Translations under genes and position numbers: made by a program
DNA from: a virus
Reading direction: 5' to 3' (one strand)
IMG/VR virus record: IMGVR_UViG_3300026522_000001
Location: 1 to 64,000 of that record
Length of the DNA stretch: 64,000 bases
Notes under the pieces: generated by a model
What the model saw: the letters and a program-made list of their open reading frames with translations, nothing else
What the model was told of the DNA's origin: nothing
Databases searched by the model: none
In this document: in pieces, positions 83 through 60,060 of the stretch
Position numbering within the stretch: the first letter of the stretch is position 1
Layout of the letters: each line of letters opens with the position of its first letter

Positions 83-1780
83 TTATGACATTAACATTTT
101 AGTTAATGATGCAATAGATATATTATTATCTATTAGCCCATCTTGTATAGATTTCTTTTTATTTACAATATCTAGTATATGTTCATCTATTGTATTATGT
201 GCTACTAAAACATATACAGTTAATTTTTCTGTTGTTGTAGCCCTATAGCATCTATCTATTGCTTGTGTAAATCCTGCATATGTCCATCCTACACTAAAGA
301 ATATCTCTGTATGCGCTTCTTGTAGATTTAATCCTACTCCTCCTGCTCCTATTGTTGTTATAAATACTTTACAGGATTCATCTTTCTTGAACTTTTCTAC
401 TTGCTCATTTTTATTCTTTGTAGTGCCAGTTAGTAAAGCACAATTATACTTTTTAGATAGTTCTCTATACAGAATATCACATGTTGTGCTAAATACACTA
501 AATATAACTACTTTACCGTCTATTTGTTCTAGTAATTCTTTTGTTCTTTCTATTTTTGAACTTTCTAAAACATTTGTAGATAGTAATTCAGTTGTTTCTG
601 TTGCTTGCCTTAATCTTGTTAATTGACTTAACATTGTTGGTATATTTTCTATTTTATCAAGATTATCTATAATATCTTTAGTTATATTATTATATACCTT
701 TTGTTGTTTATCTGTTAATTCTATATATTCTTTTCTGATAATCTTAGGCGGTAATTCTAGTATATCTTTTTTTAATCTTCTAATAGACACACTATCTACT
801 AAATCTTTTATTTCATTTAGATTTTTATAGCTTTCTATGTTATTAAACATACCAAAGTTACAAAAATGATTCTTAAATGAATAATAATTAGTATCTATTC
901 TTCCTATAAATTTTAATGGTACATATACATTTAGAGGATTATTTGTTATTAGTGTACCTGTCATAGCTATTTTATATTTTGTATTTAGCTTTAATAATGC
1001 TTTAGTCATTATTGCATTAGGATTTGTACAAAGATGTACTTCATCTACAACAATCATTTCTATTTCTTTTTTCTTTATCCAATACTGTAGTTTCTTTACT
1101 ATATCTTTATTTTGTAAAGAATGTATATTAGTTATTATAAAAAACTCTTTTTCATCTATTTTTTGTAAATCTTCTAATTTATCTTTATTTGATTTTATAA
1201 TATATTTATTATTCCTATTCTTTCTTAGTCCTAAAACAGTAGAATTTAATCCTGTATGTGTTTTTATTTCATCTTTATAGTTCCATATCAGACTACTTCT
1301 ACATACTATGATTAAACAATGTTTTATTTTATTTTCTTTTTTTCTAATAAGAGAAGAATATATAGTTACTAAAGATTTACCTAATCCCATTTCAGATAAT
1401 AATAATGATTTATCTATACTTGTTAAATAGTCTATATCTTCTTTTTGATATTTATATGGTTTAGTAATTATTTCTTTAGGTAATTTATAATGGTTTAATT
1501 TAACTATTTTATTTTCTTTATCTAAAGGAGTACCTGTTATATTATAAGTTATACTTATATTACTATATTTATTTAATACTTCTTTTAATCTATCTAAAAC
1601 ATTATAAGGTAATTCCCAACATTGATAATATTTATCTTTTTTATCATAATGATAATATTTTTCTGTAAAAGAATTTCTAATAATATTTACTATATTAGCA
1701 TTATATACAAATTTAATATAAATACTTTGTTTATATATTTTTAATTTATTACTTTTATCATATGTTATATTTATAATCAT
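83..1780 (-). CDS. SNF2/Swi2-family helicase-like ATPase
   Basis: 565-aa ORF; motif I LSEMGLGKSL, motif II VVDEVH, C-terminal helicase-C-like block (LLTGTT, GGVGLNLQ, QAIDRCYR). Confidence 0.85.
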   Translation of the reverse strand: MIINITYDKSNKLKIYKQSIYIKFVYNANIVNIIRNSFTEKYYHYDKKDKYYQCWELPYNVLDRLKEVLNKYSNISITYNITGTPLDKENKIVKLNHYKLPKEIITKPYKYQKEDIDYLTSIDKSLLLSEMGLGKSLVTIYSSLIRKKENKIKHCLIIVCRSSLIWNYKDEIKTHTGLNSTVLGLRKNRNNKYIIKSNKDKLEDLQKIDEKEFFIITNIHSLQNKDIVKKLQYWIKKKEIEMIVVDEVHLCTNPNAIMTKALLKLNTKYKIAMTGTLITNNPLNVYVPLKFIGRIDTNYYSFKNHFCNFGMFNNIESYKNLNEIKDLVDSVSIRRLKKDILELPPKIIRKEYIELTDKQQKVYNNITKDIIDNLDKIENIPTMLSQLTRLRQATETTELLSTNVLESSKIERTKELLEQIDGKVVIFSVFSTTCDILYRELSKKYNCALLTGTTKNKNEQVEKFKKDESCKVFITTIGAGGVGLNLQEAHTEIFFSVGWTYAGFTQAIDRCYRATTTEKLTVYVLVAHNTIDEHILDIVNKKKSIQDGLIDNNISIASLTKMLMS

Positions 1781-1930
1781 TTTATTTTTCCTTTTTTATG
1801 GCTCTTAATCTATATATAGATATTATAACATATATAGGATTTCATTTCAAGTTATATTTTTATTAAAAATAAGTAGTGGAAATTGTCTTTCTAAAAAGGA
1901 CTCATGTTTATTCTGCCCTATTTATATATT

Positions 1931-1954
1931 ATATATGAACGTAGTGAATATATA
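1931..1954 (+). repeat. Single copy of the ATATA-YGAACGTAGTGAR-TATA motif that also forms the 58.9-59.1 kb palindrome arms
   Basis: atatatgaacgtagtgaatatata here versus tatatacgaacgtagtgagtatat at 58950-58972 and its reverse complement at 59072-59094. Confidence 0.6.
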
Positions 1955-2043
1955 ATATATAAATAGCATATAACTATATATTATTTATATTATATAGTTA
2001 ATTTTATTAAATAGATAAATATTATATATTATTATTTATACAT

Positions 2044-11218: not shown

Positions 11219-11400
11219 TTGACACTCCCCATGCTTAAAGGCAGGGGATTCCTACTTCTTTGACCGTAGCGTATGCGGTGAAACCGCATGAGGTATGGCG
11301 TAGCCATACCTTTTTATGTCTTACACAATCTCCATAGGCTTATTTTATACTGATTCCGCAAGCCCTACGGTACAGTTTTTATATTGTTTAAGCTACTGAA
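11219..11400 (-). ncRNA. Predicted TnpB omega-RNA (reRNA) scaffold
   Basis: GC-rich hairpins in AT-rich DNA just 3' of tnpB (GCGG-tgaaa-CCGC, GGTATGGC-gta-GCCATACC, CCCC..GGGG terminal hairpin); location as known for TnpB omega-RNAs. Confidence 0.6.
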
Positions 11401-12500
11401 AGTAATCTTTTACCCTCATTTAAGATGTTTATGCTTGCATTTATGTCTCTATCATGTGTAGTATGACATTTTGGACATTCCCATTCTCTGATTGACAAAT
11501 CTTTTACTTTTGGATTTCTATATCCACAAGAACTGCAGATTTGAGAACTAGGAAAGAAAGTGTCTATTTTTACTACTTGGCAATTACTTTGCCATTTTGA
11601 TTTATACTCAAGCATAGTAACAAATTTATACCATGAACAATCTTGAATAGACTTAGCTAGTCTATGACTCTTTACCATATTCTTAATCCTTAAACTCTCA
11701 ATAGCTATAACTTGGTTTTCGTCTACTAGCTTTGTTGAAAGTTTTTGAAAGAAATCATTCTTGAAATTGGTAATTTTTTCATATTGAATAGCTACTTTTA
11801 TCCTTCTTTTTTCATGGTTTTTAGATTTAGGCATTGTTCTTGAAAATTTTCTTTGTAACCTTTTTAACTTATTTTCAAGTTTTTTAATATGCTTAATATC
11901 CATATTGTATTTTGTACCATTAGATAAAATAGCAAAATCTTTAATACCTAAGTCAATACCAACTTCATTAGACTTAGAAGTTTTAAAAGTATCTTCTTCC
12001 TCAACAAGAAGTGAAACAAAATACTTATTTGATGGTGTCTTTGACACTGTAGCATTTTTGATTTTTCCAGTAAAAGCTCTACTCTGTTTTATTTTTATAA
12101 GAGTTTTTAATTTAGGCAAGTGTAACTTGCCGTCACTAATAAATATCATTCCAGACTGATTAAGTGTTCTATAAGAATTTTTCCTGTGTTTACTATGAAA
12201 TCTTGGATATTTAGACTGCTTCTTAAAAAATCTCTGAAAAGCAGTATCAAGGTCACGAAGAGATTGCTGTAAAGCAACAGAATCACTCTTTTTTAACCAT
12301 TCATATTCAGAATATCTTTTTAAATCAGTAATATGCCTTGAAAGTTCTTTCATAGAGATAGATTTTTTCTCATTTTCCCAAAGTTCTTTTTTAAGAGCTA
12401 AACAATGATTATACACAAAACGTGCATTTCCAATACATTGGTTAAAAAATTGTTTTTGACTCTCATTGGGATATAACCTAAATTTATATGCTTTTAGCAT
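11388..12500 (-). CDS. tnpB: TnpB (OrfB) RNA-guided endonuclease-type transposase accessory protein
   Basis: 370 aa; MLKAYKFRLYPN start, RuvC-like VGIDLGIKD and IAIESL, zinc ribbon CSSCG...CPKCH, DRDINASINI. Confidence 0.9.
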   Translation of the reverse strand: MLKAYKFRLYPNESQKQFFNQCIGNARFVYNHCLALKKELWENEKKSISMKELSRHITDLKRYSEYEWLKKSDSVALQQSLRDLDTAFQRFFKKQSKYPRFHSKHRKNSYRTLNQSGMIFISDGKLHLPKLKTLIKIKQSRAFTGKIKNATVSKTPSNKYFVSLLVEEEDTFKTSKSNEVGIDLGIKDFAILSNGTKYNMDIKHIKKLENKLKRLQRKFSRTMPKSKNHEKRRIKVAIQYEKITNFKNDFFQKLSTKLVDENQVIAIESLRIKNMVKSHRLAKSIQDCSWYKFVTMLEYKSKWQSNCQVVKIDTFFPSSQICSSCGYRNPKVKDLSIREWECPKCHTTHDRDINASINILNEGKRLLSVA

Positions 12501-12565
12501 TTTGTTTCACCCCCCCCCCTCCAGTTTAACACTCTCCACACCTAAATTTTTGTTATTTTGTTTAT

Positions 12566-12594
12566 ATTATAATACAAAAGTTGGTGCTTGTCAA
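12566..12594 (-). promoter_or_regulatory. Consensus promoter inside the IS left end driving tnpB
   Basis: Minus strand TTGACA (12589-12594)-N17-TATAAT (12566-12571). Confidence 0.6.
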
Positions 12595-12645
12595 TACTTA
12601 ATTTAGTTCTCGCGCCTTATATCCCCAGCCATAAATGACGGGGTT

Positions 12646-15600
12646 TTACAGTGCTTCAAATAATGTGTCTATAAATTCGTTTGTTATTGGTTGAATTTTT
12701 GTGTCATATACTGCAAGTTCAAAATTATTTTTTGAGAAACTTGTGTCATTATTCTGTTTTATGCTTCTATATATTGCACCATCATATAATACAAGCTCTC
12801 CTTCTGTATATGTATTTCCTGATTTCCAATCTTGTATATTAGATAATAATTCCCAATTATCAATATCATCTTTAAATGTATTTGCGCTTGTATGTTCTTT
12901 TATACATCTATATAATATACAATTATATATAATAACATCATTTACAAAATATCTTGTACCTTTTGCCCAGTTATCATGTTTTCTATCAAATCCATCCCAA
13001 TACTGTGGTTCAAATATACTTGTTGATATGTGTGTTGAATTACATACATACAATGCTCCATTATAATATACTAAAGTATTTTTCTCATAAACTTTATTTG
13101 CAGTCCATTTTGAAATATTTAAATCAGATACATCACCAATTAATTGCCAATATCCATCATTAACAGATATTATTAATGGCTTTACTTTATTATATGAACC
13201 ATTAGAAGCATAGCTTCGCTTTTCTCTATTTGATACGAATTTAATATATCTTGTATTTAAAGTAACTTTTAAATTAAAGTTTCCATCAAGCTCATTTTGT
13301 GTTTCATATAATTTTGAGTAATTTGTTCCGTCATCACTTACATAAATATATAAATTACAATATGCCGCGGAATAATTAGCAAAGTAAGCATAAATATTTG
13401 ATACTTGTTTTATACTTCCTAAATCATATACATCTGATGCGTCTATAGTAACATATTCGTATGAGCCTATTGGTGCGTCACCATCATATGTTGTTACAAA
13501 AAATTCATTCTTAGTATTTAATGTAGTTTGTTCAACATCTTCTGAAACACTTGTATGTGCTACTTTACATCTATATAGTTTATTATTAGAAATAACAGTA
13601 TCTCCAACTTTATAATATATTCCTTTTTTATATAATTGTACATTTGAAAATGTCTGTAACCATTCTGCTTCATCCGTTGCAAAATCATTGCCGCTTATAT
13701 GTGTTTCTACTGCTTTATATGGAACATTATTATAATAAACTATTTGGTCTTTTAAATATAATGTTTGCTTTGTCCATGTGCTAGCAATATTTATTGTTCC
13801 AATTAATTGCCAATTAGCTACATCTGCATTGAAACTTGTACTTGTATGTAATTTTACACACCTATACAAATTATTTTCATAACGAATCATATCACCAATT
13901 TCATATTTATGTGATGTTACCCAATCTAATATTGTAGCACTGCATAATTGTACCCAATCATCATTATTATAATCAACATCAAAATTATTTGTGCTTGTAT
14001 GTAATACTTTGCATCTATATAGTAAATTATTATGTAATACTAATTGGTCTTTTTTATACTCTTTGTTTGCAGTCCAGTCCGTTATTTCATCTACTGTAGG
14101 AGAAACTAATTCCCAATCACCATCAGTTTCATAATCTACTTTAAAGTCCGTACTGCTATCATTATTTTTAATGCACTTATATATCTGTGCATTTTTTAAT
14201 ACTAAATCACCAATATAATAATGTGTGTTACTTGCCCAATCGTCTATTTGTGTTTTACTTATTTCCTGCCAATAATCATTTTTATAATCGTGATTAAAAT
14301 CATTATTTGCTTTGTGTGCTAATAAGCATTGATATAGTTTATTATTATGAATAACAATGTCATCTTTTAAATACATTGTTGCCGCAGTCCATGTATTTAA
14401 TGTGCCACCACCAATGGTTTCCCAATCAGCATTATCATTGTCCCAATTAGTTGCGCTCATGTGTGCCGTTTTGCAACGATAAATCGTATTTCCATTTACA
14501 ATACATTGACCTTCATAATAATATTTATTTGCTACCCATGCTTGCAAATTTGCTAGTACGTTGCTTAGTAACGTCCATTTTGAGCGGTCTGTTTCAAAGT
14601 TACTACTAGATGTATGACCCGCTGAATTTATAAAAAATAGATTATCATATTTTATTATTGTTCCAGCCTTGTAATATACTCCGCTTGCCCAATTTGGTAT
14701 ATTAGCGTAAACTATATCCCATTTTGCAATATCTGTTTGAAAATCTGTTGTATTGCTTGTATGTTTTGTATTACAACGATATAGAATATCTTTGTATATT
14801 ACAAATTGACCTACTTGATATGGTTTATTTACTTGCCATTCATTTGCACCACCAACACCACCAACAATTTCCCATGAATTAGTTTCATTATCAAAACTTG
14901 TTGCATCACTCATGTGGTCTGTTTTAGAACGATATATAATACCGTCTACTAAAACGCATTGGCCTGTATAATAATATGTGGATGATTGCCAATTATTTAA
15001 ATATGCTGGTACATTTCCTAGTAATTTCCATTTTGCACGGTCTGTTTCAAAATTACTTGTCGATGTATGAGCACTTACACATTTATACAATAAACCATCT
15101 TTTATTACTACTACATTTAATGGGTAATATTTAGGATATGTCCAGTCATTTACTGAAGCATATAATAAGTTAAAGTTTGCAATATCATCTATAAAATTAG
15201 TGTTCCCACTTGTAAAATTTGCATTTGCTACATAGTATGTTCCTTGATATGTAACAATCTGACCTTTTTGATATTCTGTATTTTTAGCATATTCATCAAC
15301 TAAACCATATGTATCTAATAACTCAAATTTAGTTTTATCAAATGTAGTTGTACTTGTATGTTCTGTAATACATTTATAAATTCTATTATTATAAACTACT
15401 GTAGCATGTTCTTGATATAATACACCATCTTTCCACTCTTGTACATTTGAAAATAACTGTTGAAAATTAATTTTATCTTGTGCAAATGTATTTAATGATG
15501 TATGGTCTATTTTACATCTAAATATCTCATTATTATATAATACAATTTGTCCTCTTGTATAATATGTATTACCTATCCATAAGTCTAATGAGTTACTACT

Positions 15601-32218: not shown

Positions 32219-32371
32219 TTGACACTCCACATTTCTAAAAGCAGGAGATTCTTGGTTCAACAACCATTGCGCTTTCCGCCAAAGCATCTGGCGTCTTACA
32301 CGATTTCCCCAAGCGTGAATTCCCATGCAAAACATATAGCTAAATTATTTTAAAAAATAGAAATTTGACAA
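32219..32371 (-). ncRNA. Orphan (tnpB-less) omega-RNA-like IS605-family right-end copy with upstream promoter-like box
   Basis: Closely similar to 58446-58571 and shares the terminal hairpin and GTCTTACA box with the tnpB-linked copy; TTGTCA-N17-ATAATT at 32343-32371. Confidence 0.55.
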
Positions 32372-56456: not shown

Positions 56457-58009
56457 CAGTATTTGAAAATTTCTTCGACAACGTCATAGCGGGACTTATT
56501 CAGCTGTCTGCAAAAGGCTTTATATGGGTCAAGTTCATTACAACAAACCATATCTACAAGCTCTTTACTAAATCCACTCAAAAGAATTACACCATTTCTT
56601 GAGCTTTGAATTGGGACTGTACCATCATTATAACAAGAGACATTCCAAAAAATGAGTTTAGGAAGTTCATACCCACAATCCTTATACTTCTTCTCAATAT
56701 TCTCAAATAATGTGTCATTTTCTTGTATATTTTGATTGCGTAATGGGAATCCAAATGCATCTGTATCACACATAGCAGTATTAAACTGCATATCAGAAAT
56801 GATAAGAACATTCTTTGGCATATCTGCCTGTGTCGCATTACACTTCTTTGCTGTTTTTAGGATGAGGTCAAATACAGATTCAACATTAGTTGTACTACAT
56901 TCTGTATTTTTCATTAGCTTTTCTATATTGTCCCTTAATGTATTGCAGTTTACTGTAATCATCTTTGGGTTATTAGAAAATGCCATGATTTTATCTTTGA
57001 ATACACCTGTATTATTTTTTGCACAATACAGAGCAATTGAATCCCCAATTTCCATCGCTGAAACATTTTTTGATACATATGATAACATAGAGCCACTTCC
57101 ATCTCTAACAACAAGCGTATCAGCAAATGTTTTTGGTTTCTTTTGAGATTCCCAAAGACTCTCTAGGGTATTGTCAACAGGTTTCATTCCAATGCCAAAA
57201 AAATTAGCATCTTTCTCATATGCATGAACTATGTCATACAAAAACATAGAATTAGCATTTATCTTATTTTCGCCACGAGCTACATCAATAAGATATTCAT
57301 TTCTTCTAGCAAAATCGTGCTTAAGAAAAGAATCCTTATACTTGATATTTGCTAAAGATGGTACATGAGAGTAATCTACTTTATCCCATTTATTTGAACT
57401 TAACTTTACCTCTAAAACATCTAGCCCTTTTCTTAGTTTAGAAAGTGTTTTTCTATACTGTGAAGGAGACATTCTAAAATATTTTCTAAGTTCATTACCA
57501 ACTGCTACTGTTTTCTTTGAAGATGTATTGATACTCGGCATCCATTTTGCTAAAAGACTGTATGGCTTTCCATTGGAATAATTATATAAGTCATCATAAA
57601 GCTGTTCTTGCAAAATCCCTGCAATATATATTTTTAAGTCATCATATTTTGTATTTGCAAAAAGATAAATATAGTCGTCCCATCTGCCAAATTCAGGCAA
57701 GTCAACCGTGTAAATAAATCTATAGAAAATAGACATATCGATTTCTGTAAGATGAAGTAGCAACTTTCTAAAAGTATCTCTTTCACCCATTCCTTCTCTG
57801 ACATCTCTCAAAAAGAGAAGGAATCTTAATGTCATAGCTTTATCTTGATAATATGCTTCATCAAAAAGAGAATAATCTATTGGATTTTCCCTAAATGATG
57901 AAACTTTATAGAAAAAATCTAAAAGTTTACTGCCTGTTGTAGCATAAGCTACTGCACCATTTTCTGTTGTTGTTTTTACATTGTTTTCAAGATTTTCAAT
58001 AAAATTCAT
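56453..58009 (-). CDS. DUF2828-family protein (TROVE-like N-terminal region plus vWA-like C-terminal domain)
   Basis: 518 aa; N-terminal TTENGAVAYATTGSKLLDFFYK...FLLFLRDVREGMGER as remembered for DUF2828; C-terminal VVRDGSGSM...LIISDMQF is vWA/MIDAS-like. Confidence 0.65.
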   Translation of the reverse strand: MNFIENLENNVKTTTENGAVAYATTGSKLLDFFYKVSSFRENPIDYSLFDEAYYQDKAMTLRFLLFLRDVREGMGERDTFRKLLLHLTEIDMSIFYRFIYTVDLPEFGRWDDYIYLFANTKYDDLKIYIAGILQEQLYDDLYNYSNGKPYSLLAKWMPSINTSSKKTVAVGNELRKYFRMSPSQYRKTLSKLRKGLDVLEVKLSSNKWDKVDYSHVPSLANIKYKDSFLKHDFARRNEYLIDVARGENKINANSMFLYDIVHAYEKDANFFGIGMKPVDNTLESLWESQKKPKTFADTLVVRDGSGSMLSYVSKNVSAMEIGDSIALYCAKNNTGVFKDKIMAFSNNPKMITVNCNTLRDNIEKLMKNTECSTTNVESVFDLILKTAKKCNATQADMPKNVLIISDMQFNTAMCDTDAFGFPLRNQNIQENDTLFENIEKKYKDCGYELPKLIFWNVSCYNDGTVPIQSSRNGVILLSGFSKELVDMVCCNELDPYKAFCRQLNKSRYDVVEEIFKYC

Positions 58010-58099
58010 CTTTTTTCTTCCTTCCTAGATACAAAATAATTATCCCATATTATTATTTATTATTGATTGCTGTATGTATCTAAATAAATTAAAATTATA

Positions 58100-58174
58100 T
58101 TATAAATACTTTAGGTTATGAATACCAAAACAAATCAATACAATTCCTGAAATTAGAATAAGACTAACTAGCAT
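58100..58174 (-). CDS. Possible 24-aa hydrophobic peptide
   Basis: GGAGA SD 7 nt before ATG; MLVSLILISGIVLICFGIHNLKYL. Confidence 0.3.
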   Translation of the reverse strand: MLVSLILISGIVLICFGIHNLKYL

Positions 58175-58273
58175 TATATATCTCCAAAAAGCAATTTGCT
58201 TTAACATCTATTGGTTTCATCATTTTGACTACTTATGCTATCCACCACGTAAAGGTTGATGTTACTGGATAAC

Positions 58274-58354
58274 TGCCCCTGACAGGATTCGAACCTGCAC
58301 GTCTTTCGACAACGGATTTTGAATCCGCACTGTCTTCCATTCCAGCACAAGGGC
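58274..58354 (-). tRNA. tRNA-Leu (anticodon CAA), type II, no encoded CCA
   Basis: GCCCTTG/CAGGGGC acceptor, GCGGA-TTCAAAA-TCCGT, long variable arm GTC-GAAA-GAC, GCAGG-TTCGAAT-CCTGT, A73. Confidence 0.85.
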
Positions 58355-58445
58355 AATAATTGGTTTTTTCGTTTTTTCCTTAACGACCTAGCTTTTCAGA
58401 TGCGTTTTAGTGCTGGCCAGTCACTTCAAGCATAGTCCTATCCGC

Positions 58446-58600
58446 TTGACACTCCCCATGCCTAAAGGCAGGGGATTCTTGGTTCAACGACCAGTGCACC
58501 GCTTCCAAGGAATTGGTGTCTTACATGATTTCCCCAAGCGTGAATTCCCGTGTGTCCCACGGTATGTTTATATTATAACACACCCTAAAACACATGTCAA
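58446..58600 (-). ncRNA. Orphan (tnpB-less) omega-RNA-like IS605-family right end fused to a consensus promoter
   Basis: ttgacactccccatgcctaaaggcaggggattc... shares the terminal hairpin with the tnpB-linked copy and is closely similar to 32219-32345; TTGACA (58595-58600)-N17-TATAAT (58572-58577) on the minus strand. Confidence 0.6.
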
Positions 58601-58640
58601 CACCTTTTCTGAAAAATTTTGACGAAAATTGAAAAATATA

Positions 58641-58750
58641 TTCTGACCTCGTAGAAGCCGTTCTGAGAGTATTTTTCCCTCTATGAGTATAAATATACCT
58701 AAAAATGCTTGGGAGCCCCTTAGTGGGCATCCTTCGAAACGACACAGGGT
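58641..58750 (-). repeat. Structured element of about 110 nt, copy B (reverse complement resembles 3641-3757); possible IS left-end remnant
   Basis: Shared blocks CCCTGT, AGGGGC, TTTAGGTATATTTATAC, GGCTTCTACG. Confidence 0.5.
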
Positions 58751-58939
58751 TTTATATTTATATTCTTTTCTCCAACCTGCACAAAAATAAAAATATTGGC
58801 CAAAAAATGAATTTTATATATATAGTGAAATTTTTCACAAGCTATACACTATTTTTTTAGGAGAGGGAGACAGCTAAAGGTAGTTCCCCTCATGGTATAC
58901 ATTTTACACATTTGTCCATTTCGTCTTATATTATATATT

Positions 58940-59105
58940 ATTATATTATATATACGAACGTAGTGAGTATATTTAATATATAATATATAATATAATATAT
59001 ATAAAAAATAATATAATAAATATATATATATAAATAATAAAATATTATATATGCTATATATATTATATTATATATACTCACTACGTTCGTATATATAATA
59101 TAATA
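58940..59105. repeat. 166-bp AT-rich palindrome with perfect arms of about 33 bp, at the divergent late/early junction
   Basis: 58940-58972 attatattatatatacgaacgtagtgagtatat is the reverse complement of 59073-59105; the centre consists only of A/T. Confidence 0.8.
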
Positions 59106-59440
59106 TATATAGGGCAAAATAAGCACCTGTCTTTTAGAGAAAGACAAATTATAAAGACTACTTTTTAGCTAAAAATTAGACTAAAGTCCTATTTACTATT
59201 TAGACAAAATACTTTATAATATATAAAATAATAAAAATAAATAAAAAATAATAATATTTTATCTAAACAGAGCATATAATATTTAGATAAAAATAAATAT
59301 AAAATAATCTTAAATAATAAATTTAATATTAATTTTTATAAATAAAATATAATAATAAATTCTAAATAATTATTATATGTTTAGATTAACATAAATATAA
59401 GAATTTAATAAAAGTTTAATAAAATAAATTAAAATTTCTA

Positions 59441-59469
59441 TTGACAGCTATATATACGTATGATATAAT
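59441..59469 (+). promoter_or_regulatory. Consensus early promoter (rightward)
   Basis: TTGACA (59441-59446)-N17-TATAAT (59464-59469). Confidence 0.65.
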
Positions 59470-59535
59470 ATATGTATAGAGAAAAAGGAAATAAGGATTT
59501 TAGAGATAATAATAAAAAGAAGTGAAAGGAAAAAT

Positions 59536-60060
59536 ATGATTCAAAAACACATAAATATAAAAAATTTACAAGGAACAGTTTCTTTGAATAAAGATATTCT
59601 TGTAGATTTAGCAGAATTAGTAAGAATTTCACCTATTTCATCAAGACTATTATTCTTTATTATGGGTTATGCAGATGATAATAATGAAATTATTACAAAT
59701 GTAAAGACTTTATCTAAATATTTAGGAAAAAATAGAGGATTAATAGAATATGCAATTAAAAATCTAGTTAAAAATGGATATATTACTATGTCATGTGTAG
59801 ATATAGATAAATCTATTGATATTATTGGTAAAGAGCATGATATGGAACTCTATTTAGCTTCAAATAAACGTATTTGGAAAGTTATAGGAAATAAATATAT
59901 TGGAACTTTTAAGATTAAGGGAAAATATATTAAACTTAAAGTTAATGAGAATATTATTAAGTGTTCAAATAATAGAACAGGAAATATTATTCTTAATATA
60001 AAAGATAATTTATATTATGATACAAGAATTGAAGATAATGATTTAAAGTGGGAGTTATAA
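59536..60060 (+). CDS. Hypothetical early protein, possible winged-helix DNA-binding protein
   Basis: 174 aa; LSKYLGKNRGLIEYAIKNLVKNGYI is wHTH-like; first gene after the early promoter. Confidence 0.45.
   Translation: MIQKHINIKNLQGTVSLNKDILVDLAELVRISPISSRLLFFIMGYADDNNEIITNVKTLSKYLGKNRGLIEYAIKNLVKNGYITMSCVDIDKSIDIIGKEHDMELYLASNKRIWKVIGNKYIGTFKIKGKYIKLKVNENIIKCSNNRTGNIILNIKDNLYYDTRIEDNDLKWEL

Follow-up and report, generated by a model that had tools for sequence, protein, structure and literature searches.

How does a complete guide RNA of the TnpB type come to lie directly behind a perfect promoter in a phage genome, with no transposon gene beside it, and does it do anything for the phage? 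The question is raised by a short locus, called here unit 2, in a stretch of viral DNA of 64,000 nucleotides (nt) (IMG/VR record IMGVR_UViG_3300026522_000001, positions 1 to 64,000), to which we refer as the window. Unit 2 is an omega-RNA scaffold, that is, the right-end module of an IS605-family insertion sequence (IS), and it stands between a promoter and a tRNA-Leu(CAA) gene. The window itself is a phage-like genome, AT-rich (about 30% G+C) and without nucleotide match in INPHARED; its terminase shares no more than 46% identity with its counterparts in phages of Clostridium and other Firmicutes, and its positions 58000-59600 are identical to the same stretch of an 87.6-kb metagenome contig from ENA (L043). 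We propose that unit 2 is most likely a decaying transposon remnant and not a new regulatory device, and that it would best be classed as a solo right-end/omega-RNA relic that a phage promoter has captured. The coordinates of all features are collected in Table 1.

By its sequence and predicted structure, unit 2 is a genuine TnpB omega RNA, or IS605 right end. A covariance model (R1), built from 18 distinct copies of the family with a mean identity of 91% in the alignment, matches it with 138.9 bits (E = 1.7e-31) and a single broken pair. On the same 18-copy alignment RNAalifold gives 36 pairs, nine of them with compensatory changes, and the right-end hairpin CCCCTGCC/GGCATGGGG covaries across the scaffold family. 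Read on the minus strand, unit 2 starts ACCGTGGGACACACGG and finishes GGGGAGTGTCAA, and GCGGATAGGACTATGC... comes next; it is 92.4% identical to the family consensus, and eight of the nine differences (over 118 positions) are either unpaired or neutral, or preserve the pairing. In a viral contig found by a scan with a conserved 30-mer (L002), the same 118 nt begin 12 nt past the stop of a 396-codon tnpB, itself preceded by an open reading frame (ORF) of 136 aa that resembles, as judged by eye, a Y1 transposase (tnpA). The copies of L002, L005, L006 and L015 all lie directly 3' of tnpB reading frames of 396-414 codons. A scan of one genome per species gave 19 further scaffold copies; the match in L012 is due to chance and unrelated. 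The hosts of the 19 copies are mostly Selenomonas, Mitsuokella, Anaerovibrio and other Selenomonadaceae, two copies being in Succinatimonas; a tnpB-like frame ends just upstream of about half of them, and the rest are derivatives or are cut by contig ends.

At its locus, as far as can be read from the DNA, this scaffold is an orphan, with neither tnpB, tnpA nor left end. The original prediction had described it as an omega-RNA scaffold devoid of adjacent tnpB, which the covariance match bears out together with the lack of any TnpB-like ORF near unit 2, the nearest tnpB (11388-12500) belonging to another lineage. A profile of eight left ends detects no left end at 58564-58830, upstream of unit 2. 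Deprived of it, unit 2 is a solo right end that cannot be mobilised. It had also been claimed that the scaffold is the same as another one at 32219, called here unit 1, and indeed unit 2 is 82% identical over 112 nt to window 32219-32327, both copies being recovered by the covariance model (138.9 bits for unit 2 and 78.8 bits for unit 1).

The promoter in front of the scaffold, a perfect TTGACA-N17-TATAAT, had been placed accurately to the base. It is of the sigma-70 type and matches both hexamers at 12 positions out of 12, with a spacer ending in TGT, which makes an extended -10 (TGn). TATAAT is followed by ATAAACAT, the promoter lies 8 nt upstream of the scaffold, and transcription is predicted to start near 58565. 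The 35-nt promoter string occurs only once in the window. Nevertheless, 11 perfect TTGACA-N17-TATAAT were observed there for 0.05 expected by chance: such promoters are thus not random, yet not unique to the unit 2 site. Ten of them are minus-strand sites, none beyond 58.7 kb, and the sole plus-strand one, at 59.4 kb, is just upstream of the first rightward ORF; the long ORFs, where listed, are likewise read leftward as far as ~58 kb and rightward from 59.5 kb, with unit 2 at the start of the leftward block. Seven of the 11 promoters have the extended -10 TGn by hand count. For a phage, this set of promoters is unusually uniform.

The original prediction saw in unit 2 a precise internal deletion, by which the left-end promoter of an element like the tnpB-carrying copy resident in the window would have been fused to the right-end RNA; the "TATAATATAAAC" context, in common with the resident promoter at 12566-12594, was taken as a sign of kinship. 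The comparison does not support this origin. After TATAAT, ATA is found in seven of the 11 perfect promoters and ATAAA in four, so that this context is common among the phage promoters and the likeness to 12566-12594 is not special. Besides, the scaffold is of another lineage: the resident omega RNA scores only 40.1 bits with the covariance model, against 138.9 for unit 2, and three of its hairpins are of different length. The promoter is kept in relatives of the phage whether or not they carry the scaffold, and no left end is found upstream of it. Four relatives were recovered, L023 and L024 via a DUF2828 protein (92% and 88% protein identity) and L044 and L045 via exact matches to a neighbouring helix-turn-helix (HTH) protein. 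The hexamers and the TGT are identical in the five phages, the spacer being variable, and the scaffold is absent from L023 and L024 (no covariance match at E <= 10 with default filters) as well as from L044. Judged by this distribution, the promoter belongs to the phage and not to the transposon.

An IS might have left its mark on this promoter at an earlier time. The 11 nt upstream of the scaffold, AATATAAACAT, and its first six bases, ACCGTG (58563-58558), form together an IS-like 17-mer, AATATAAACATACCGTG, which is common to every related phage, with scaffold or not (alignment A7). A variant of it, AATAAATGTGTACCGTG, present in L024 and L045, is identical at 16 of 17 positions to the interval between the tnpB stop and the scaffold in a Mitsuokella copy (L022). 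This match to IS sequence suggests that the leader common to the five phages is itself an IS relic; given these IS-like 17 nt before the scaffold, an older IS may have contributed to the -10 region.

On the other side of unit 2, the 90 nt between scaffold and tRNA-Leu are relatively G+C-rich and correspond to the truncated 3' portion of a conserved phage RNA element, for which we use the working name X RNA. Scanning with 24 nt of this flank gave L028-L032 in metagenomes and L041 among viruses. X RNA occurs in a short form of ~170 nt and a long form of ~320 nt, with a tRNA gene directly 3' in most phage and metagenome contigs. All copies except that of L044 contain a 35-nt invariant core, GGACTATGCTTGAAGTGACTGGCCAGCACTAAAAC, and the consensus fold displays compensatory changes, two of the helices concerned being GATGYG/CRCATC and CCTAAAGC/GCTAGG; X RNA is apparently a conserved, structured RNA. 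An Rfam search with X RNA gave no match at the gathering score, nor at E <= 10. A link with the DUF2828/vWA gene was considered and rejected, tblastn giving no DUF2828 around the X RNA loci of L028-L032. The possibility that the corresponding segment of L023, L024 and L044 is a diverged scaffold was likewise rejected: with filters off L044 scores 0.3 bits, and the segment is homologous to X RNA instead.

In L023, L024 and L044 the promoter is followed by a short leader and then by the complete short form of X RNA. In the window, the stretch from ...ACCGTG to ...CCTTGAT is replaced by the scaffold; as the 5' part of X RNA is thereby lost, the 5' strands of both covarying helices are missing and X RNA is disrupted. 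Homology with the alleles of L044 and L024 picks up again at the very first base after GTGTCAA, where intact alleles read ...TTGAT directly followed by GCGG.

These observations can be assembled into a history that we hold to be probable: unit 2 would be a stranded IS605 remnant, co-transcribed from a phage promoter, without adaptive role and at the beginning of its decay. Its source would be the right-end/omega-RNA module of an IS605 transposon of the tnpA-tnpB type, common among the Selenomonadaceae of rumen and gut, and its setting the leader of a conserved leftward unit composed of the promoter, X RNA, tRNA-Leu(CAA) and a DUF2828/vWA gene. The right end would have been joined, base-precisely, into the middle of the X RNA gene between TTGAT and GCGG, a joint of the kind that the TnpA Y1 transposase presumably makes, by the mechanism of IS608/ISGst (PMC10055086). 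The left side might then have been trimmed by deletion or recombination at the short IS-like repeat ...TACCGTG, which is present just after the promoter in all related phages; with the left side so trimmed, the scaffold would now start ~2 nt after the predicted transcription start. The predicted transcript comprises the whole omega scaffold, the 90 nt left of X RNA and tRNA-Leu, from which a cut by RNase P at the 5' end of the tRNA would free the upstream part. That the transcript would plausibly run on into tRNA-Leu had been anticipated in the original prediction, and a scan of the minus strand from the promoter to tRNA-Leu found no terminator-like site. The module would simply be hitch-hiking, X RNA being inactivated in the window phage, at an early stage of the decay that is seen in relatives.

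The decay pattern that backs the remnant reading is visible at two loci. At that of unit 2, L045, whose flanks are 87-90% identical to the window, carries a scaffold behind the same promoter and with the same left junction (...CATACCGTGG), but this scaffold is degraded: it scores 93.2 bits and shares 82% identity with the consensus, and one of its hairpins is down to 9 nt where the model has 19 positions. At its right end it runs directly into AATAAATGTGTACCGTGAAGAG..., just after a GTTAT that lies inside the -10 box of the L024-type allele, and most of X RNA is deleted while the tRNA is kept. The scaffolds of the window and L045 are 81% identical (~88%, or 96/109 nt, when the indel is discounted) for 90% in the upstream flanks, which means no excess conservation of the scaffold. 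At the locus of unit 1, the state of the element goes from complete to truncated to nearly lost. In L048 and L050 it is a complete mini-element resembling a palindrome-associated transposable element (PATE), the scaffold of which scores 113.7 and 90.7 bits respectively; a tRNA-Leu(CAA) gene precedes it in L048, none being called in L050. The truncated copy of the window is shared by L051, whose contig stops 44 nt into the scaffold, and the losses extend further in L052 and L053. By comparison with these relatives, unit 1 is a truncated PATE-like mini-element, and the series as a whole has, on alignment, the pattern of mobile-element debris. Other deleted or solo derivatives of the IS family are found in L001, L009, L010 and L020.

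A single-step history of the unit 2 locus had to be rejected, and two models remain, each of which fits some junctions better. In the first one, the insertions in the window and in L045 would be independent: TnpA would have inserted the element into an L044-like allele at TTGAT, and a deletion would have followed, running from the relic TACCGTG to the same bases where the new scaffold begins. In the second one, a single L045-like ancestor would have given rise to each observed type by one lineage-specific deletion, and the two spacer variants of the scaffold-free phages would correspond to the two repeats that flank the L045 scaffold. Under both, the fusion of promoter and scaffold would result from recombination at an IS-like repeat, not from an internal deletion of a resident-like tnpB copy.

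Several observations fit less readily with a stranded remnant. Unit 2 is structurally intact and has 53% G+C within surroundings of ~26%, which fits a recent arrival and equally a constraint. The window and L045 share the left junction and differ in the right one, so that one simple history does not account for both, and no intermediate with a left end or a tnpB was found at this locus among the relatives recovered. Finally, the inferred insertion site, TTGAT, is one base off the target-adjacent motif (TAM) of the family, (T)TTAT, deduced from nine independent left-end flanks, and in a related system single-base changes of the TAM abolish cleavage by TnpB, as a mutated TAM abolishes excision by TnpA (PMC10055086). 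Depending on the allele, TTGAT (L023, L024 and L044) or CTGAT (L028-L031 and L041), the mismatches to the family TAM are one or two.

The fusion proposed originally could be rescued in another form, namely that unit 2 is a mini-IS605 of the PATE kind, its left end fused to its right end and its promoter derived from a left-end promoter. The left ends of the family do carry promoters (that of L002 reads TATAATATAAATATG), and left-end-to-scaffold fusions are real: L009 has one, and so, within this phage group, do L048 and L050 where unit 1 lies. The comparison of relatives with and without the element, which the original prediction had called for, found the promoter without scaffold in L023, L024 and L044, against such an origin. 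The IS-like 17 nt before the scaffold are also in its favour, as is a resemblance, TTTAGGG-N6-ATAATATA, between the left end of L048 and the spacer and -10 of the promoter. This resemblance, however, scores 20, a value that 1.8% of the 54-mers of the window reach or exceed and to which the other promoters come close (14-18), hence it is not significant against these controls. Neither hairpin nor TAM of a left end stands upstream: the profile of eight left ends matches the resident left end (E = 2.5e-8) and two right-end hairpins only, and nothing upstream of the promoter or in L023. When the left ends of L002 and of the resident IS were aligned upstream, only the 8-mer TAAAACCC and the -10 box were in common, and above the -10 the L002 left end is ~31% identical to the promoter by hand alignment, the random level. 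With, in addition, a TATAAT-ATAAA context that four of the 11 phage promoters share, we regard a PATE origin as unlikely.

That unit 2 is a functional guide acting in trans appears quite unlikely. The resident TnpB would load the unit 2 RNA and cut the uninterrupted X RNA alleles of co-infecting siblings, the outcome being the homing of the interrupted allele or the exclusion of competitors. Use in trans is assumed for the omega RNAs that PATEs encode (PMC10055086), the promoter is predicted to be strong and is conserved, and a suitable nuclease exists in the window: the resident TnpB has the Pfam domains OrfB_IS605, Cas12f1-like_TNB and HTH_OrfB_IS605, is homologous to ISDra2 TnpB (E = 1e-82), displays the D/E/D motifs (GIDLG, IAIESL, HDRD), aligns end to end with the designed TnpB-like nuclease 9yyg and is predicted to be intact. 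Its own omega RNA has, like unit 2, a 5' hairpin and a GUGUAAGAC junction, the two RNAs differing mainly in hairpin lengths, and 32 of the last 33 nt are common (97%, window 11219-11251). The original prediction suggested that the tRNA flank may be the guide-equivalent. By its position after ...GTGTCAA the flank of unit 2 is indeed the guide-equivalent; it is the 3' part of X RNA, not a tRNA flank. In the scaffold-free L023, L024 and L044, the guide sequence is found with one or two mismatches in its first 16 nt, a single one in L044 (position 10) and in L024 (position 6). But there it is preceded by TTGAT, and in the more distant phages L028-L031 and L041, with two or three mismatches, by CTGAT; all known uninterrupted alleles thus lack (T)TTAT, and single-base changes abolish cleavage by the TTTAT-dependent GstTnpB2 (PMC10055086), which gives a low probability to a functional guide. 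Within the window, the guide matches only its own flank at up to three mismatches, and in the collections scanned with the flank only X RNA loci were found, none of them a perfect target. Moreover the resident TnpB is just 50% identical to that of L002, the type cognate to the scaffold, and the L045 copy and unit 1 are decaying, with a scaffold no better conserved than its flanks.

Two further roles would make unit 2 useful to the phage. The scaffold could have been co-opted as a stable, structured 5' leader, or as a platform for processing, that serves tRNA-Leu and the gene downstream, standing in functionally for the lost part of X RNA. It does lie between a conserved promoter and tRNA-Leu with no predicted terminator, and relatives always have a structured RNA here, in front of the tRNA. 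On the other hand the scaffold and the X RNA part that it replaced are alike in neither sequence nor structure, in L045 the tRNA is kept although most of X RNA and part of the scaffold are gone, and conservation does not speak for it; such a co-option seems very unlikely. We rate as highly improbable that a solo omega RNA was captured under a strong constitutive promoter as a weapon comparable to a single-spacer CRISPR, or as a homing device. If this were true, a TnpB encoded by the phage 46 kb away would cut the intact X RNA locus of siblings, converting or excluding them.

Compared with known systems, unit 2 has the features of an IS200/IS605 omega RNA (also right-end-element RNA, reRNA; ISDra2, ISGst2 of Geobacillus stearothermophilus): a ~120-nt scaffold which ends in a subterminal hairpin and a terminal motif, a guide made of the DNA directly flanking the right end, and, in full elements, a location right after tnpB. 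The family TAM, (T)TTAT, is that reported for GstTnpB2, TTTAT (PMC10055086). Unit 2 differs in that its locus has no tnpB, tnpA or left end, in its predicted expression from a captured phage promoter and not from one of the element's own, and in having a structured RNA gene as flank. PATEs are protein-less mini-IS200/IS605 that often encode omega RNAs, which according to Meers et al. have to be used in trans (PMC10055086). Unit 2 is similarly protein-less and omega-RNA-bearing, and has true PATE-like relatives (L009, L048 and L050), but a PATE keeps both ends and stays mobilisable; without a left end, unit 2 falls outside the definition. TldRs are phage-encoded, nuclease-dead TnpB repressors, whose guides target sites that overlap promoters and have a TAM, for example GTTAT, at their side (PMC10705468). 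Unit 2 is also a phage-borne guide RNA derived from a TnpB system; TldR guides, by contrast, adjoin a TnpB homologue with a dead RuvC, and the promoter that they match is a distant one of the host. Unit 2 has no adjacent homologue, the only TnpB being 46 kb away with its D/E/D motifs kept, and outside its own flank its guide matches only X RNA genes. With solo IS ends and relics, unit 2 has in common to be one-ended by deletion, polymorphic in presence or absence and progressively decayed among relatives. Unlike them, it encodes a complete structured RNA, the 5' end of which lies within a few bases of the start predicted for a strong promoter.

Solo and PATE-borne omega RNAs being already recognised, unit 2 is one more example. 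What the two loci add is a natural series, from a complete mini-element to an intact solo scaffold, a degraded scaffold and a 17-nt relic, which shows how IS605 guide-RNA modules may enter phage genomes, be captured by phage promoters and decay. They also offer a testable trio, made of an orphan guide with predicted strong expression, an intact TnpB that could act in trans and uninterrupted natural targets whose TAM is near-cognate, which could probe the natural extent of TnpB-guide modularity and of TAM tolerance. X RNA, an unannotated element of the tRNA arrays of phages from metagenomes, is a by-product of this analysis that may matter more than the scaffold.

Table 1. Position of the features discussed (window coordinates unless a contig is named).
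Feature	Position	Strand	Remarks
Unit 2, omega-RNA scaffold / right-end module of an IS605-family element	58446..58563	(-)	118 nt, complete; covariance model R1
Right-end subterminal hairpin CCCCTGCCTTTAGGCATGGGG	58474-58454	(-)	within unit 2; terminal ...GTGTCAA closes the scaffold
Perfect sigma-70-type promoter	58572..58600	(-)	-35 TTGACA 58600-58595, -10 TATAAT 58577-58572; spacer 17 nt
11 nt upstream of the scaffold, AATATAAACAT	58564..58574	(-)	first 3 nt inside the -10 hexamer
Guide-equivalent, 20 nt, GCGGATAGGACTATGCTTGA	58426..58445	(-)	by position, directly 3' of the right end
3' portion of X RNA (truncated)	58356..58445	(-)	homologues in L023, L024, L028-L031, L041, L044
tRNA-Leu(CAA)	58273..58355	(-)	ARAGORN and Rfam; same transcription direction as the promoter
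Candidate HDV-like ribozyme	58216..58273	(-)	RF02682, weak match; first base after the tRNA
Perfect promoters of the window	2044, 7430, 12566, 22548, 24169, 32186, 32971, 51684, 56339, 58572	(-)	
Perfect promoter of the window	59441	(+)	
X RNA, full copies	L029:4436-4756(+), L031:427-762(-), L030:138-473(-)		
X RNA, short forms	L028:541-712(-), L023:1546-1704(+), L024:505-664(+), L041:1-170(+), L044 about 1840-1990(-)		
Resident tnpB-only IS	11219..12656	(-)	only TnpB of the window that could act in trans
Parts of the resident IS	left end 12656-12610, left-end promoter 12594-12566, tnpB 12500-11388, omega RNA/right end 11371-11219	(-)	
Unit 1, second scaffold copy	32219..32338	(-)	5'-truncated; closing helix and right-end hairpin broken
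Unit-1 locus, L048 and L050	L048 1762-2041, L050 about 790-953		complete PATE-like mini-element: TAM TTTAT, 45-nt left end with hairpin, 118-nt scaffold
Unit-1 locus, window (= L049) and L051			no tRNA or left end; scaffold without its first 12 nt
Unit-1 locus, L052 and L053			scaffold shorter by a further ~80 nt; downstream promoter lost as well

The resident IS looks like a hybrid, as far as its sequence tells: its end hairpins are of the Selenomonadaceae/L002 type, and its RNA body and TnpB are closest to those of the viral copies L034-L036 (75-81% aa identity), which have other end hairpins. It is located between two large ORFs resembling tail fibres. At its putative boundary, directly after ATTAT, its left end would supply the last codons and the stop of a 1101-aa ORF; the left end of L002 likewise supplies the last codons and the stop of the ORF upstream of it.

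Downstream of unit 2, the sequence following tRNA-Leu is a candidate ribozyme of the hepatitis delta virus (HDV) type, which might process the 3' end of the tRNA. Its match to RF02682 is weak, with 22.2 bits where the gathering score is 44 (E = 0.016 in a search of 121 nt). L044 and L045 keep the sequence, P1 showing one change that is compatible with pairing. Close relatives have differing versions of tRNA-Leu(CAA), as window 58203-58315 compared with L023:1747-1803: one version, accompanied by the HDV-like element, is common to the window, L044 and L045, and L023 and L024 have a quite different one, without this element. These differences point to a cassette-like exchange of tRNA genes. At the unit-1 locus of L048, the scaffold adjoins a tRNA-Leu(CAA) gene as it does at unit 2.

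A solo scaffold without tnpB or left end is also found in a viral contig, at L001:6009-6330 (-). About 70 nt upstream of it lies an unannotated, RNA-like segment with a tRNA-like T-arm, ending ...CACTCCA, in which ARAGORN calls no tRNA. Another derivative of IS605, found in Selenomonas and Anaerovibrio (L003:452-845(+), L007:1313-1720(-), L016 and L017), carries a non-coding "cargo": ~190 nt, conserved and with GGAGAAG...GGTTGAGGTTGCGTGTATCAACC hairpins, stand in for tnpA and tnpB between the left-end promoter and the scaffold.

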